DNA from: a virus
Lineage: Duplodnaviria > Caudoviricetes
Length of the DNA stretch: 64,000 nucleotides
Virus record (IMG/VR): IMGVR_UViG_3300048881_000734
Location: 5,116 to 69,115 of that record
Direction: 5' to 3' (one strand)
Of this stretch, positions 492-20,884 are shown piece by piece (within the stretch, counting starts at the first letter, position 1; each line of letters starts with the position of its first letter). The notes beneath the pieces are model-generated. The model was not told the DNA's origin, ran no database searches, and saw nothing but the letters and a program-made list of their open reading frames with translations. Made by a program: the position numbers and the translations under genes.

Positions 492-567
492 TGGCTGCCC
501 CTCGCGGGCTCGAACCGCGGACCCAATGATTAACAGTCATTTGCTCTACCAACTGAGCTAAGGGGCA
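492..567 (-). tRNA. tRNA-Asn(GUU), canonical
   Basis: 76 nt cloverleaf, acceptor UGCCCCU/AGGGGCA, loop CU-GUU-AA, encoded CCA. Confidence 0.95.
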
Positions 568-579: not shown

Positions 580-834
580 ATGGATCGAATCGACCCCGAC
601 TCAAACATACAGGTTGGAGACATTCTTAAATTAAGAGAGAGGTTCCAGGATTCTGCCACATTCGCCATCGTTATCGACATCAACCGAGCAGAAAGCTTTG
701 GGGAAGGTGGCTGGATTTCTTTTGATTATCTCGTCATGAATGAGAAGGAAGAATTAATTCATATCAGCGAAAGCTGCGTTGAGAAAATCCTATACTCAAA
801 TAAAAAAAGACCGGCCATAAATGGCCGGCCTTAA
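580..834 (+). CDS. Small SH3/KOW-like hypothetical protein
   Basis: 84 aa ORF with VGDIL..AIVI beta-rich pattern. Confidence 0.6.
   Translation: MDRIDPDSNIQVGDILKLRERFQDSATFAIVIDINRAESFGEGGWISFDYLVMNEKEELIHISESCVEKILYSNKKRPAINGRP
801..830 (-). terminator. Intrinsic terminator (possibly bidirectional)
   Basis: GGCCGGCCAT-TT-ATGGCCGGTC followed by T7 on the minus strand. Confidence 0.8.
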
Positions 835-844
835 AGGGGGTAAA

Positions 845-1500
845 AAGCGCAGCATACCTCGCCTTTTACTCTCGTGACCCCCAATTTCAGTTGACCTGAA
901 GATGTCCCCTTTCCGGGTTAGAGGTGCACACACCAGCCTGTAAGACTGTTCACGAGCTTTCTCCCTGTTCTTAGGCTGTAATACCTACGGAACAGCACGC
1001 CCTACTATCGTTATGATATTCTGAGCTTCTTTGAGTGAGCTGTACACTTCACCTCGCCGTTGCCCGCCCTGCTTCCAAACCTTGGGAGCATATCCACAGG
1101 ACCCCTTTCGGGACGATGGTCTTGTTGCCAATTCCACCAGAGAGACTTCTATCACCGATAGTTGAATTCTAAAAAGCTTTCGCCCTTCTTCCCAAGACAG
1201 TTGATAGGCTTTCGCCTTGTCTTAGTTTGCCCTTATCCCGTTTTCGCGATGAATCCACAAGTCCGCGAATATCTTCAGTAGCACTTCCCTAGCGGAATAG
1301 GGACTCATACCTTAGATCACTGAACGACTTCAAAGGTTCCACCCTTTTTAACTCGTCCCCTCTCTTAGTCGGGCGGCATACCGTAAGAACGATACCTTCC
1401 CAATCGAGGTTTTCTCTATACCAATCCATCATAGACGGAGAGGCCCCAGGAACCAGTAACTTTACCTGAGTTTTTCTGACCCGAGAACCTGGGTCATGTC
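845..1500 (-). ncRNA. Large structured ncRNA candidate (GOLLD/ROOL-like size and context)
   Basis: ~650 nt with no ORF of 60 aa or more on either strand; several hairpins including GAAA tetraloops; promoter upstream, terminator downstream, inside a tRNA cluster. Confidence 0.65.
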
Positions 1501-1531
1501 ATTTGAGTTGTTAAAGAACGATTGTGATAAG

Positions 1532-1559
1532 ATTATACGCTACATATTGAGAGTGTACA
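1532..1559 (-). promoter_or_regulatory. Class A promoter for the large ncRNA
   Basis: TGTACA-N16-TATAAT. Confidence 0.6.
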
Positions 1560-1587
1560 TAGAGAGATCATCTTTTTTCAAAAAAAA

Positions 1588-1674
1588 CTGGAGCGGAAGG
1601 ATTCGAACCTCCAAGGCGCACAATGCACCACCCGGGAAACAACCGGGCGCGTCTGCCAATTCCGCCACACCCCA
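1588..1674 (-). tRNA. Atypical class II (long variable arm) tRNA with GUU (Asn) anticodon
   Basis: Acceptor UGGGGUG/CGCUCCA plus G73; Leu-like D arm GGCGGAAUUGGCAGACGC; stem CCCGG/CCGGG; loop UU-GUU-UC; T arm GGAGG-UUCGAAU-CCUUC; no encoded CCA. Confidence 0.75.
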
Positions 1675-1678
1675 ATTC

Positions 1679-1753
1679 TGGAGCGGATGACTGGATTCGA
1701 ACCAGCGACCACCACGTTGGCAACGTGGAGCTCTACCACTGAGCTACATCCGC
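1679..1753 (-). tRNA. tRNA-Gly(GCC)
   Basis: Cloverleaf, loop UU-GCC-AA, CCA end. Confidence 0.95.
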
Positions 1754-1758
1754 ATAAA

Positions 1759-1834
1759 TGGTGGAGGATGTCGGACTCGAACCGACGACCTGCTGCGTGC
1801 AAGGCAGCTGCTCTCCCAGCTGAGCTAATCCCCC
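1759..1834 (-). tRNA. tRNA-Ala(UGC)
   Basis: Cloverleaf, G3:U70, loop CU-UGC-AC, CCA end. Confidence 0.95.
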
Positions 1835-1910
1835 TGGAGCCACCGAGAGGACTCGAACCCCCGACCAGCTGATTACAAATCAGCTGCTCTACCAACTGAG
1901 CTACGGTGGC
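1835..1910 (-). tRNA. tRNA-Thr(UGU)
   Basis: Cloverleaf, loop UU-UGU-AA, CCA end; abuts tRNA-Ala with no spacer. Confidence 0.95.
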
Positions 1911-5326: not shown

Positions 5327-5507
5327 TTCGACGAAGCCTCCGGCGCTTAAGCTTAGCAGCCAGGGGAATTGTTACACATTCAGCCAAGGTACCAGCTATA
5401 CAGATCGCAAACCCTGCGTAAATAACGATAACAGCGCCGAGTATCTTTTGCGACAAGGGTTTGTTCCTGTATTCTTCTCTACGAGAATTCTCACTCCACG
5501 GCTCCAT
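5313..5507 (-). CDS. Small membrane protein
   Basis: One hydrophobic segment; GGAGG SD. Confidence 0.6.
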   Translation of the reverse strand: MEPWSENSRREEYRNKPLSQKILGAVIVIYAGFAICIAGTLAECVTIPLAAKLKRRRLRRNESR

Positions 5508-5533
5508 CGCAACCTCCTAAGTCTAAGTAATTA

Positions 5534-5561
5534 AATCTAAGAGAATTTCTAGCAATTTACA
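5534..5561 (-). promoter_or_regulatory. Class A promoter
   Basis: TGTAAA-N16-TAGATT. Confidence 0.45.
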
Positions 5562-5563
5562 CA

Positions 5564-5773
5564 CTAGTCCAAATCAGCTCTCATCAGATCAGACAAATCG
5601 TGTGTCACCACTGTTCCGTCACGATACTGCACAGCAGCTAATTGTCGTCCAGTGGGCGAACCCTCAGTCATCCATACATTGGCAGTTTTGTCTGTTGTTA
5701 TCTCCACGACAGTACCAATTTTCGCCATATTGAGATAATGATATACCGGTGTACCCACCTTAATATTCTGCAT
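5564..5773 (-). CDS. Small SH3/KOW-like hypothetical protein
   Basis: IKVGTPVY..KIGTVVEI. Confidence 0.65.
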   Translation of the reverse strand: MQNIKVGTPVYHYLNMAKIGTVVEITTDKTANVWMTEGSPTGRQLAAVQYRDGTVVTHDLSDLMRADLD

Positions 5774-5963
5774 TCGACTCTTCCTCCAGTCTTCTTGCTA
5801 ATCTTAACACATCTTTTGAAAATGTATCCGTAAATAACCACGGGAAAATCGAGTGAATAGTACAAGTGATGCTTAACTTGAGCGCCCACAGCGCGAATTT
5901 AACAGCTCGAATGGCATGTTGGAAGTATGTCATATTGACTTCTTTAAGATGTTGAATTGGCAC
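5760..5963 (-). CDS. Small conserved hypothetical (DUF6356-like)
   Basis: TYFQH..A...IHSIFPWLF pattern; real start probably at MTYFQH. Confidence 0.55.
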   Translation of the reverse strand: MPIQHLKEVNMTYFQHAIRAVKFALWALKLSITCTIHSIFPWLFTDTFSKDVLRLARRLEEESNAEY

Positions 5964-6157
5964 TAGTTCCCTCCAGACTTCAAGATATCAAAATCATCTC
6001 GGTCTAATGGATAAGTACCATGAGGAAAACTAACAAGCCAGTGGACTTGGCCAATTTTTTCTAAAATAATTCCCACACTTCCAGTGTCAAGACAGATCAC
6101 CAAATCACCCTGCTTCGGGGTGCGCGACTTTCTACCTTTCTTCCTTGCTCCAGACAT
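5963..6157 (-). CDS. Small SH3/KOW-like hypothetical protein
   Basis: KQGDLVIC..GSVGIILE. Confidence 0.6.
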   Translation of the reverse strand: MSGARKKGRKSRTPKQGDLVICLDTGSVGIILEKIGQVHWLVSFPHGTYPLDRDDFDILKSGGN

Positions 6158-12782: not shown

Positions 12783-13297
12783 GCTTTCACCTTCCCCATA
12801 CTGAAAGCGACCGGCTTAAACTTGGACCAGTTTTTGCCGCCCTTCTTATCAGCAATGAAAACATTGATGGTGGCTATCTCTATTTCTTCGCCCTTCGGAA
12901 TCCTTACCTCGCTTTCATCTGAAAACATACCTGGCTCTTCACCGGCAGCCTGCGGGTCATACCCGAAATCATTCGGTACTTTGCCCCAAAACATTACATG
13001 AAGGGTCTTGCCTCGATTAGTCGCGGACCACACATCGGCAAAGCTTGAAGCAACATCCATATCTAGTGTCCAGGACTCGCCAATCTCTTCATTTTCCAGC
13101 TGAGCCATGATAAATGAGCCAGCCTCACGTTCACTTAACGCGGAGGATTGGTTTCTGGCGAGCTTTCTTATTTGTGACGCTAGACCCGCAGAGGGCATAT
13201 CAATCTTCATTCCGCGATAAATGTATCTGAAACCTGGTCCGGCGGAGTTATCTCTTTCTGTTATTATCTCTCTTATGTATTCACGTAATAGATTCAT
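12779..13297 (-). CDS. Tagged ADP-ribosyltransferase-like protein (R-S-E)
   Basis: MNLLREYIREIITE; YRG, ESWT, ESEVRI. Confidence 0.6.
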   Translation of the reverse strand: MNLLREYIREIITERDNSAGPGFRYIYRGMKIDMPSAGLASQIRKLARNQSSALSEREAGSFIMAQLENEEIGESWTLDMDVASSFADVWSATNRGKTLHVMFWGKVPNDFGYDPQAAGEEPGMFSDESEVRIPKGEEIEIATINVFIADKKGGKNWSKFKPVAFSMGKVKA

Positions 13298-13731
13298 TTT
13301 GGCTCCCTGATCATATGCCCATAATCATTAGTGCTGGGGACAAATCCAACGGAGCCATAAAACCTATAAAGATCATCGTGTTCTGCGCCAAACTCTCCGT
13401 ATGCCCCTACCTCTAGCTCAAGCGTAATATCGTACATGTCTGCTTTATTTACAACTGTTTCCATTACATTTCTGGCGTATCCTTTTTTGTAACACTCATC
13501 AGACTCCCGACCTTTTGAATCTACGGTCTCTATAAAGTCAAACCGGACTGTGTCAGAATCTGTATGATCTTTGAGGCTTATTCTTACCTCGCACCCATCG
13601 GGAAACTTTTCTACCAAAGTACCTTTTGGACCGCTGTAAAAGCTAGCTTTCATCTCATCAAGGAACATATTCGCTGGACCATTCCGCTCTGTAAGAAGTA
13701 TCTGTCTTATGTATTCACGCAGCAGATTCAT
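13294..13731 (-). CDS. Tagged GNAT acetyltransferase
   Basis: MNLLREYIRQILLTE; KKGYARNVM, LYRFYGSVGF. Confidence 0.65.
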   Translation of the reverse strand: MNLLREYIRQILLTERNGPANMFLDEMKASFYSGPKGTLVEKFPDGCEVRISLKDHTDSDTVRFDFIETVDSKGRESDECYKKGYARNVMETVVNKADMYDITLELEVGAYGEFGAEHDDLYRFYGSVGFVPSTNDYGHMIREPK

Positions 13732-14746
13732 CTTTACAACCCTCATCTGCGCTTATCAGCTCTTTTATTCCAGATGCGTTCCATACACAGCCTGACGCGA
13801 CATCCCACCCGTAATACCAGTCTGAATCCATCCGCATGTCATGCAGATAGGGGCAGATCTCAATACCATCATAGTGACTTGCAACCTTTGGCCAGTCAAT
13901 CTTGATATCTCCATAGCTGTTGGTAGTAACACCATACATCTTATTAAACTTCTTGAAGTCGTCGTTATTTGTTATGAATAGAATCTCATAATCATTCAAA
14001 ATAACATCATACGAACTATCATACCTGCTTGCGCCGTCAGTTAGACCCGTCCTACAAAACTCCTTCCAGTCGATGGAGCTACCGTCTTGGCACTCGTACC
14101 ACAGACCATCGGGCTTGTAACCAATCTCCTGGGAAAACCCACTAACCTGTGGTTCTTTACCATCTCGAGTATCTTGTCGACTGTGGTGGATACGTACCTT
14201 CTCACCGCCAGTCAAGGGGAAGTGAGATTCACGAATAAGCTCTCTTATGTATTCACGGAGTAAGGATTCTTTCATCGGGCGTAGCGAGCCAGGCCGGACC
14301 AAGAGTTCGTCCTCCACAAAATCGCCGGCCGGCCAGAGATGTTCAACTGAAACTAGAACATCAGAACGATTCACCATATATGATGCGACGGTGGCGCCCT
14401 TGCCGCCATAATAGCCACCGCTACAGCCCCCATCAGCAACTCTCTTGTTAGTCGTCACCGATGTTACGTCACCGGCTAATCCGCCGCATCGCCAAACTTG
14501 AATCTCGTCTGGAAAATCAGAGGCTATGGCAGCCTGAGTTTTCTGATACATCTCATCGGCAGCTGCTTGAACGTCTTCCATCCGTACAGTGTTTAGATCA
14601 TATTGAGTAGCGAAATAATCCAGCACATCTTCCTGATTCGGATCAGCCCAAAGATATGATATGTTTTCAGATTGACAACAGCCATCATCTGCTATTGTTT
14701 GTGCCAGCCAGCTCTGAAATGACATGAATTTCATTCCGGGCTCCAT
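13715..14746 (-). CDS. Two-domain protein: ART-like domain, linker, unknown domain
   Basis: VWRCG, TSVTT, EDELLV; internal KESLLREYIRELIRE; C-terminal KPDGLW..YDGI..WDVASG domain. Confidence 0.6.
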   Translation of the reverse strand: MEPGMKFMSFQSWLAQTIADDGCCQSENISYLWADPNQEDVLDYFATQYDLNTVRMEDVQAAADEMYQKTQAAIASDFPDEIQVWRCGGLAGDVTSVTTNKRVADGGCSGGYYGGKGATVASYMVNRSDVLVSVEHLWPAGDFVEDELLVRPGSLRPMKESLLREYIRELIRESHFPLTGGEKVRIHHSRQDTRDGKEPQVSGFSQEIGYKPDGLWYECQDGSSIDWKEFCRTGLTDGASRYDSSYDVILNDYEILFITNNDDFKKFNKMYGVTTNSYGDIKIDWPKVASHYDGIEICPYLHDMRMDSDWYYGWDVASGCVWNASGIKELISADEGCKDESAA

Positions 14747-19568: not shown

Positions 19569-20483
19569 TCACCCTTCTGGACGTTCTACAACTCGAATAT
19601 TGATCTGGGGCTCGTGGCCTTCAGGTGTTTTGTCGATAACACCTTCAAAATCGCATTCTTTAGGGAAATAATAAAAAACAAACTCCTTGTCTGGCAAGTG
19701 CATCGCAACCTGAGAGGTTGTCATCATGCCCGTGTCAGGAAGCGTCCGGCGGAGCATGTTATTATTAGACTCTGGCTCTAGATGTTGTTGAGCGATGGCG
19801 GGAGCGATCTCTTCAAACTCACTAACGTCAGCTAATTCAACTTCAGCTTGAGCTTTCCTAATCTTGGAAGACATATAGTCATCTGGCCGTCTTTCTGGTG
19901 AATATCCGGCGCCGACGTGTTCATGACCGTGATTTGTACGTACGTCATAGCCGGTGGTTGGGTCCAACTTATTAATAATTGGAGTATGCTCAGAGGACAT
20001 TTCAATGCTGTATAAAGAAGTAGGGTTCCCAACGAACGTGTGACCCTTAATTCCGCCCATATAGCCAACAAGAGACTTTATAGCTTCATCTATGTCTTGA
20101 AACTGCAGTGCGTTAATCATTCTAGGGCCATCATCTGACGAGACCTTCCCTTTCGTTTTATCTTTGATAGCTTTTTCATCATCTGATATTGAAAGAGCAG
20201 AATTAATAACACCGAGTCCATGAGAATTCATACCCTCGGCATATCCGGTATCGAGATCCTCAAAATAAACCACCTCTGTCCCATCCGGCAGAAGGTCTCT
20301 AACAATCTCAATACGAGCGTGATAATTTCGGTCTCTGGATTTCGCCAAAACATGGCCCCCGTCAGCAGAACCGGCCACGATTATACACTCATCCATCCTT
20401 CGGTAATTGTTCAACCGTGCTAGCACAGCTTCCAATAATCGTATTTCGTTCACGGGGACTCCAGAAAAAATAAGTGAAGACAT
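19569..20483 (-). CDS. Ntn-hydrolase (peptidase C45-like) with propeptide
   Basis: MDE|CIIVAG..LAKSRD, EGMNSHGL, RTNHG; possible GTG start at 20453 with GGAG SD. Confidence 0.7.
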   Translation of the reverse strand: MSSLIFSGVPVNEIRLLEAVLARLNNYRRMDECIIVAGSADGGHVLAKSRDRNYHARIEIVRDLLPDGTEVVYFEDLDTGYAEGMNSHGLGVINSALSISDDEKAIKDKTKGKVSSDDGPRMINALQFQDIDEAIKSLVGYMGGIKGHTFVGNPTSLYSIEMSSEHTPIINKLDPTTGYDVRTNHGHEHVGAGYSPERRPDDYMSSKIRKAQAEVELADVSEFEEIAPAIAQQHLEPESNNNMLRRTLPDTGMMTTSQVAMHLPDKEFVFYYFPKECDFEGVIDKTPEGHEPQINIRVVERPEG

Positions 20484-20486
20484 CTC

Positions 20487-20493
20487 TAAATAT
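20487..20493 (-). promoter_or_regulatory. Class B promoter element
   Basis: ATATTTA. Confidence 0.4.
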
Positions 20494-20547
20494 GTTGTAA
20501 AAATCGTGATGTTGATAAATATAATAAGAAAAACCAAACCTTTTCAT

Positions 20548-20884
20548 GGGGGCGTAAGGGCTTCGACGGGGTAGAACTAAGGGGAGAGTGCAAGCAGGTA
20601 AGATACGACCTAAACTGTTCAAAAACAATAGTTGCAAATAACAACACACACTACGAATACGCCCTCGCGGCATAGTCGGGTGGTCGCCTAAAACCATCTA
20701 TCCAAGATAGGCTTGAGCAGTTGACCCTGCTGACCAATAAAAGGTCACCAGTCCTCACTCGGTCACAGCGGAGGCAAAAAATGCAGTGACTATCCTACTG
20801 ATCGGAGAAATGATCAGACAAGCTTGTGGATGACTCAAACTGAAGCTATTGCGGACGCGGGTTCGACTCCCGCCGCCTCCACCA
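20548..20884 (+). ncRNA. ssrA: tmRNA
   Basis: 5' GGGGGCG pairs with 3' CGCCUCC-A-CCA with G3:U; T arm GCGGGUUCGACUCCCGC; tag ORF 20634..20675 ANNNTHYEYALAA*. Confidence 0.95.

Follow-up and report, generated by a model that had tools for sequence, protein, structure and literature searches.

To our knowledge, few bacterial or phage non-coding RNAs of great size and complexity have been recognised (the rRNAs, RNase P, tmRNA, the group I and II introns, OLE, GOLLD, ROOL and raiA), and we know of no solution to what the phage-borne giants amongst them do, even after their structures were obtained by cryo-EM. ROOL RNAs are about 600-660 nt long, with many helices and several pseudoknots, and occur in phages and prophages, often near tRNA islands (PMC12286853). 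In the same cryo-EM work, ROOL forms an octameric nanocage and GOLLD a 14-mer nanocage (D7) (PMC12286853). GOLLD RNAs have been identified in marine metagenomes too; the marine GOLLD env-38 lies downstream of tRNA-Met, and the 3' region of GOLLD is more conserved than the 5' region. A large screen of viral structured RNAs has reported motifs with a mean length of 67 nt.

The locus considered here lies in a 64,000-nt stretch of DNA (the window) from a 69-kb IMG/VR virus record, for which the CheckV completeness estimate is 25%. The window encodes DnaK, a TilS-type PP-loop enzyme, a CCA-adding enzyme, a DnaE-type polymerase and GroEL, as well as eight tRNA or tmRNA genes. The tmRNA gene (20419-20884, plus strand) carries the tag ANNNTHYEYALAA; the Rfam model for permuted tmRNA also overlaps it, just above threshold (52 bits versus 47). 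An earlier note on this DNA had proposed that a hairpin-rich, ORF-free RNA lies inside a tRNA cluster near the start of the window, and that it is either a member of the GOLLD or ROOL class or a new one. The setting is indeed as described, with same-strand tRNA genes at 1587-1910 and 492-567, and the longest ORF within 845-1500 is of 56 aa. We consider it very probable that 1525-807, on the minus strand, is an RNA gene whose product, about 650-700 nt long, is non-coding, stable and highly structured. The gene is made up of a promoter, a boxA-like leader, a structured core (843..1495; about 650 nt, with some 31 helices including pseudoknots) and an intrinsic terminator. All features of the gene given below are on the minus strand unless otherwise stated.

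A scan for the consensus predicts a sigma-70-like promoter, TGTACA-16-TATAAT, with 10 of 12 matches at 1532..1559, where the earlier note had placed one; transcription would start at about 1525. At the other end, an intrinsic terminator is predicted at 801..832 (801..830 as first proposed), comprising an 11-bp GC-rich hairpin and a U-run, which the terminator scan locates at 832..807. It is common to the RNA gene and to the small convergent ORF discussed below. In alignments with three contigs that have no tRNAs near the RNA (L007, L008 and L009), homology sets in just 3' of the -10 box and extends as far as the terminator, and the flanks are unrelated. Since homology is bounded by the promoter and the terminator, the RNA gene can be regarded as a discrete unit. 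Boxes resembling the -10 element are found 5' of boxA in 57 of 74 relatives; as these leaders are AT-rich, such boxes carry no weight for the generality of the promoter.

More than 130 homologous stretches are present in marine metagenome and IMG/VR contigs. A profile search (nhmmer) of all fetched loci gave 135 matches, 101 of them full length. The full-length members form 72 clusters at 96% identity and are 67-90% identical to the window, and an HMM built without the window has one match in it, at 1525-807 (E = 2e-191). The matches that lasted came from searches with a 16-mer, with a two-block pattern and with a 22-mer (970-949) that was chosen as invariant in the first six sequences; the 22-mer is found exactly in at least 120 marine metagenome contigs, and also in one contig filed as part of a genome (L165, below). 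Two other exact patterns matched only the three nearest relatives. One contig (L158) has two diverged copies of the RNA on the same strand, about 7 kb apart (5407-6115 and 13032-13752), with identities to the window of 78% and 83%. DnaK synteny was also tried as a route to relatives and was rejected; the loci fetched in this way (L001-L005), and their whole records, are without the RNA and without tRNAs beside DnaK. Amongst the GenBank phages of INPHARED, no match to the whole element was found at BLAST sensitivity and the 3' core gave chance matches only, the two best of which were fetched and then rejected. No cultured carrier was found, and full-text literature searches found no description of the RNA family. 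In all likelihood, the RNA is one of a large family, not yet catalogued, whose carriers are marine jumbo phages.

Five of the larger carrier records were checked. They are of 184-316 kb, one with terminal repeats; PolIII alpha is encoded in four of the five and a Gp23-like (T4-like) capsid gene is present in three, and a 223-kb record gave a match to neither. Amongst 185,579 species genomes, the only match is a contig of 305,838 bp (L165, NHDW01000006.1; RNA at E = 8e-189) labelled as belonging to a metagenome-assembled genome (MAG), Methylococcaceae bacterium TMED69. One large contig (C5) of the same MAG has both a Gp23-like capsid gene and a phage-type PolIII alpha, and we take it to be the RNA-carrying L165. 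If this is so, then it looks like a jumbo-phage genome that has been binned into a bacterial MAG, either through mis-binning or as a clue to the host.

The earlier note proposed that covariation be looked for amongst homologues, and it is strong in alignments of both 30 and 72 sequences. The fold of the single sequence already beats that of dinucleotide shuffles (z = -3.05). In the 72-sequence alignment, 243,253 column pairs were scored by an APC-corrected G-test; the top scores belong almost without exception to Watson-Crick covariations (for example UA 43, CG 21, AU 6), and they define about 30 helices. The 164 pairs in 31 helices were transferred to an independent alignment of 30 diverse sequences (A5), with 500 shuffles, and partners slid by one to three columns, as controls. 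Standard pairs are formed by 97.8% of cells, compared with 88.2% in the shuffles and 39-44% in the slid controls. Changes on both sides are seen in 98 of the 164 pairs (shuffled, 56; slid, 21-30) and in 581 cells (shuffled, 165; slid, 53-78). None of the 500 shuffles reached the observed value by any measure. Five crossing helices (7, 10, 15, 16 and 28), at 1378-1375/1231-1228, 1342-1337/1297-1292, 1257-1251/1169-1163, 1196-1190/1087-1081 and 931-926/857-852, have three or four double-change pairs each. The RNA is composed of four domains; the long-range or pseudoknot helices that join them number at least five and are kept by compensatory mutation. One further helix, 1444-1442/1422-1420, falls in columns that are gapped on A5 and hence has no confirmation there.

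The 5' end of the core is formed by a hairpin, H1 (GACCC/GGGUC, 1478..1495), which had been noticed as UGACCC/GGGUCA (1477..1496). The sequence of its stem, 1495-1491/1482-1478, is conserved throughout the family, and that of its loop is invariant. The loop sequence UUCUC (1487-1483) may pair with GAGAA (1416-1412). This candidate pairing is nearly invariant: pair 1483-1416 varies (CG 63, UG 6, UA 3) and the other pairs are constant. The 5' domain proper (1271..1470) holds helices 2, 4-6 and 8-13, amongst which are 1470-1465/1450-1445, 1409-1406/1362-1359, 1403-1399/1373-1369, 1393-1389/1384-1380, 1358-1353/1327-1322, 1347-1343/1336-1332, 1317-1314/1274-1271, 1310-1308/1280-1278 and 1303-1298/1291-1286. 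Compensatory changes are found in all six pairs of helix 2, and in five of the six pairs of 1303-1298/1291-1286, the helix first recognised as CCCUA/UAGGG (~1285..1304). The crossing helix of this domain, 1342-1337/1297-1292, is a loop-loop kissing interaction that is 97.8% paired, with three double-change pairs.

The central region (1163..1269) contains helices 7, 14, 15, 16 and 17, each with three or four double-change pairs. The loop (1257-1251) of its hairpin 1269-1263/1249-1243 pairs with 1169-1163, and two further long-range pairings reach outwards, one from GGCA (1231-1228) to UGCC (1378-1375) and the other from CUUGGGA (1196-1190) to UCCCAAG (1087-1081). The hairpin 1188-1185/1174-1171, proposed as AAGGGC-GAAA-GCUUUU (~1172..1187), has compensatory changes in three of its four pairs. 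The hairpin AGGC-GAAA-GCCU (1217-1206), another of the earlier proposals, is present and has a G-C to C-G swap relative to L007; it is, however, a variable insertion seen only in the sub-clade of the window, the other five proposed helices being conserved in relatives generally.

The multi-helix junction domain (1004..1162; helices 18-24) is closed by 1162-1150/1018-1004. It includes 1139-1134/1119-1114, with a GNRA-capped tip, 1102-1096/1072-1066, 1065-1063/1025-1023, and the hairpin CCC-GAAA-GGG (1112-1103), which had been described as UCCC-GAAA-GGGG (1102..1113) and is borne out as 1112-1110/1105-1103 with a near-invariant GAAA loop. GNRA loops are conserved at 1109-1106 and at about 1128-1125. 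In the same domain, 1055-1053/1035-1033 has a GUACA loop. The conserved sequence UGUACA at this site, the only palindromic loop, was considered as a dimerisation loop and rejected, the variants fitting a local hairpin with an AGU/GCU stem, a closing pair that is U-G, U-A or C-G, and a GUACA pentaloop. The 3' domain (843..995; helices 25-31) is the most conserved part of the RNA. It begins with the hairpin 995-965, in which the outer stem of the proposed CUGUUC..UAGG/CCUA..GAACAG (965..995) is invariant and the inner stem covaries; an 11-nt tetraloop receptor was sought in this hairpin and discarded, because its CCUAAG half is not conserved and the inner stem covaries. The domain also includes the invariant 22-mer and the helix 956-950/877-871, which encloses 948-946/936-934, 924-921/882-879 and 904-900/886-882. 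The pseudoknot 931-926/857-852 crosses 956-950/877-871, and 867-865/845-843 closes the domain.

The tRNA cluster upstream of the RNA (1587..1910) comprises tRNAs for Thr, Ala and Gly and an odd tRNA with a long variable arm (1588-1674; anticodon GUU according to ARAGORN; 42 bits to the tRNA model), which lies directly 5' of the RNA. Similarly long, low-scoring tRNA-like genes adjoin the RNA in relatives (L118:3327-3422, L139:58-146 and L071:1379-1473). A terminator scan found no match between the upstream cluster and the RNA. On the downstream side is tRNA-Asn (492..567). More generally, of the 110 loci surveyed, 59 have at least one tRNA within 1.5 kb of the RNA; these tRNAs number 132, and 129 are on the same strand. 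The survey of relatives found no tRNA inserted inside the RNA. In several contigs 1-6 nt separate the leader from the end of a preceding tRNA, often tRNA-Met, and another tRNA starts 4-5 nt after the last helix. Because the tRNAs abut the RNA in those relatives, its release there by tRNA-processing nucleases is suggested. Of 78 distinct relatives, 29 have a related terminator 3' of the RNA, and in the remainder the RNA leads on into tRNAs.

Conservation in the leader 5' of the first helix is confined to one island, G(T/A/C)TCTTT(A/T/G)A(A/C/T)A. In the window this island is the boxA-like element GTTCTTTAACA (1509..1519), a perfect match to the gamma-proteobacterial consensus GYTCTTTAANA, which is known from rRNA and suhB leaders (Baniulyte et al., PMC5725501). 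In such leaders, boxA binds NusB/NusE and blocks Rho (Baniulyte et al., PMC5725501). The pattern G.TCTTT.A.A is found at the same position in 98 of 102 members, 34 of which have the perfect consensus. On its own, the boxA pattern is as frequent as chance would predict, being no rarer than a reversed control in a 2-Mb genome, and so the case for boxA rests on its fixed position and its conservation. From these we infer a NusB/NusE-binding boxA; another possibility is that the island serves the mature RNA as a tertiary contact or a site for protein binding. The element occurs in a few discrete variants, GTTCTTTAACA, GTTCTTTGAAA and GATCTTTTACA amongst others. If boxA must fit the NusB/NusE of the host, the variant could mark the host lineage of uncultured phages. 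A comparison of the phage boxA with the rRNA leader of a putative host was attempted and set aside, the only cellular match being a MAG without a 16S gene, in which the motif is at chance frequency.

There is an evident likeness to rRNA operon leaders, where boxA likewise belongs to the 5' leader of a structured transcript that is long, untranslated and flanked by tRNAs. Unlike an rRNA operon, the RNA described here is phage-encoded, and no similarity to 16S, 23S or 5S rRNA was detected in it; Nus binding, and any equivalents of boxB and boxC, are putative. The most likely description, in our opinion, is of a Nus-antiterminated RNA that is stable and works as a folded particle during infection. 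Host RNA polymerase would transcribe it, starting at the sigma-70-like promoter of the gene itself or reading through from the tRNA cluster. We lean slightly towards the view, by analogy with rRNA leaders, that boxA in the nascent leader would then recruit host NusB/NusE and other Nus factors, giving protection from Rho and allowing co-transcriptional folding. The ends are probably generated by the intrinsic terminator in the window, and by tRNA-processing nucleases such as RNase P in those relatives that abut tRNAs. We reason that biogenesis combines boxA/Nus action with tRNA processing in this way, and that during infection the folded RNA would act in trans, as a particle made of RNA. The analogy of ROOL and GOLLD suggests that it might assemble into homo-oligomers, some of the apparently tertiary kissing helices being intermolecular; this is possible, and we regard it as somewhat doubtful. 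Covariation cannot separate intramolecular from intermolecular contacts, as was pointed out for ROOL by Kretsch et al.

Otherwise, the RNA would work as a ribonucleoprotein or decoy linked to the surrounding tRNA and translation takeover genes. It might bind NusB/NusE through boxA, a ribosomal protein, or the product of the small convergent gene at its 3' end, rather than forming an RNA-only assembly. Several observations are consistent with this. The boxA would stay on the RNA once an upstream tRNA had been cut off, and H1 and several loops are conserved by sequence and not by covariation. The convergent ORF of 84 aa (580..834, plus strand) ends inside the terminator, and its homologues, 31-67% identical, are encoded on the strand opposite to the RNA; they lie 0-4 nt from its 3' end or overlap it in nine other loci, and in at least 15 the distance is about 1 kb or less. 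The 84-aa protein has no Pfam or PHROG match. Its AlphaFold model (pLDDT 79.7) is a small SH3/Tudor-like barrel, and amongst its best fold matches are the KOW-like domains of eIF5A/EF-P and the Tudor-like domains by which CarD, Mfd and UvrD interact with RNA polymerase. As these fold matches are weak (E >= 0.07), we assign no function to the protein. The commonest protein-coding neighbour of the RNA is a gene for an FKBP-type peptidyl-prolyl isomerase, found at about 38-48 loci (for example L148:4466-5125), mostly downstream and on the same strand. In the record of the window it lies about 0.5 kb before the first base of the window (G000:C1:4394-4618, minus strand), and the order is DnaK, tRNAs, RNA, tRNA-Asn and then FKBP. 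The RNA is accordingly in a chaperone-rich stretch, the DnaK and FKBP genes flanking the tRNA/RNA array. TilS is another recurrent neighbour. Against the idea of a protein partner is the fact that these neighbour genes are present in a minority of loci, as well as the weakness of the fold matches, and on balance we judge a ribonucleoprotein or decoy to be the less likely state of affairs, albeit the strongest of the alternatives.

It is less probable again that the RNA is a ribozyme, acting for instance on neighbouring tRNA precursors or on host RNA. About 190 positions are invariant in the 30 diverse sequences, concentrated in junctions and internal loops; the core, with its several pseudoknots, is of a complexity like that of ribozymes, and the RNA is embedded amongst tRNA genes. 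However, RNase P (RF00010 and relatives) has no match in the record, nor in 700-1700 at E<=10; the Rfam 15 models of group I and II introns, OLE, HEARO, tmRNA and self-cleaving ribozymes have no match over the RNA element, and no signature of a cleavage site was identified. A large number of invariant junction nucleotides in a large (~600 nt), ornate RNA is also reminiscent of OLE (RF01071), which differs in being chromosomal in anaerobic or extremophilic Firmicutes and in working with Oap proteins. In the present case there is no match to the OLE model and none of the partners of OLE is encoded nearby.

The question of whether the RNA is a very divergent GOLLD or ROOL that Rfam models fail to recognise can be answered with more assurance. 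The likenesses are clear. Its size, pseudoknotted ornate fold and tRNA-array setting are those of ROOL, which is a resemblance and not homology. Like GOLLD, it is a giant RNA of phages that lies close to tRNA arrays, and many members of the family come directly after tRNA-Met, like GOLLD env-38, and are most conserved in their 3' half. Yet at the gathering thresholds of Rfam 15 only tRNAs and a tmRNA are reported in the window, and with permissive filters (E<=10) 700-1700 gives only tRNA and terminator-like noise; in 14 diverse relatives, searched with all of Rfam at E<=1, there is no match over the body of the RNA. The GOLLD model (RF02032; gathering threshold 150 bits) has no match in the window, in 700-1700 or the whole record at E<=10, or in the 14 relatives at E<=1. 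The ROOL model (RF03087; gathering threshold 99.1 bits) has no cmscan match in the window, in 700-1700 or in the 14 relatives. A ROOL-only search of the whole record also gave no match, as did its control, and we therefore place weight on cmscan. As GOLLD is known from marine metagenomes, a marine origin should not hide members of that class. There are, moreover, differences from both: the RNA has a conserved boxA-like leader; it is of about 650 nt, compared with more than 800 nt for GOLLD; and, in contrast to ROOL, its carriers are marine jumbo phages, with no cellular genome except for the one apparent binned-phage contig. Kinship with either class thus seems very improbable. Of the two possibilities raised in the earlier note, it is the new class that holds, given the lack of any model match and the strong covariation, and we are confident that the RNA represents a new class of the GOLLD/ROOL kind that belongs, by the available tests, to neither.

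A set of separate small RNA modules, or of cis-regulatory hairpins, that are carried jointly in tRNA arrays might account for the optional hairpin 1217-1206, and is scarcely credible for the whole, because covarying long-range helices (1378-1375/1231-1228, 1257-1251/1169-1163, 1162-1150/1018-1004 and 931-926/857-852) link distant parts, and because every partial match abuts the end of a fetched stretch and the remaining 101 are all full length and collinear. The decayed gene that the earlier note had allowed for, or any unusual protein-coding gene or set of small peptides, has a negligible chance of being correct: there are sense-strand ORFs of 45-56 aa, and the 56-aa ORF, used as a degenerate probe in tblastn, did recover the two first relatives, but these are nearly identical, the variation lacks codon periodicity (period-3 power 1.9 times the median; DnaK control, 629), members differ in the length of their longest stop-free stretch (44 to 114 aa), gap lengths in the alignment are mostly not multiples of three, and substitutions in helices are compensatory. 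The RNA is not protein-coding.

Taken furthest, the preferred reading of a Nus-antiterminated, folded particle would make this a third self-assembling giant phage RNA class, made like ribosomal RNA via the Nus complex and released by tRNA processing, and acting on host tRNA or translation; we offer this fuller version tentatively, and think it unlikely to be correct in all its parts. In this version the phage would commandeer the means by which the host transcribes and folds its rRNA, so as to make the particle in bulk, and boxA, retained on the RNA, might also titrate NusB/NusE away from the synthesis of host rRNA. The finding means that abundant marine jumbo phages carry a major gene that has gone unannotated. 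With more than 100 diverse members, the family provides an independent comparison for the traits that giant RNAs have in common, namely tRNA arrays, kissing loops and perhaps cages. The covariation-supported fold is ready for structural work, and the dependence on boxA and Nus factors, together with release by tRNA processing, offers a testable hypothesis for how such an RNA may be made.
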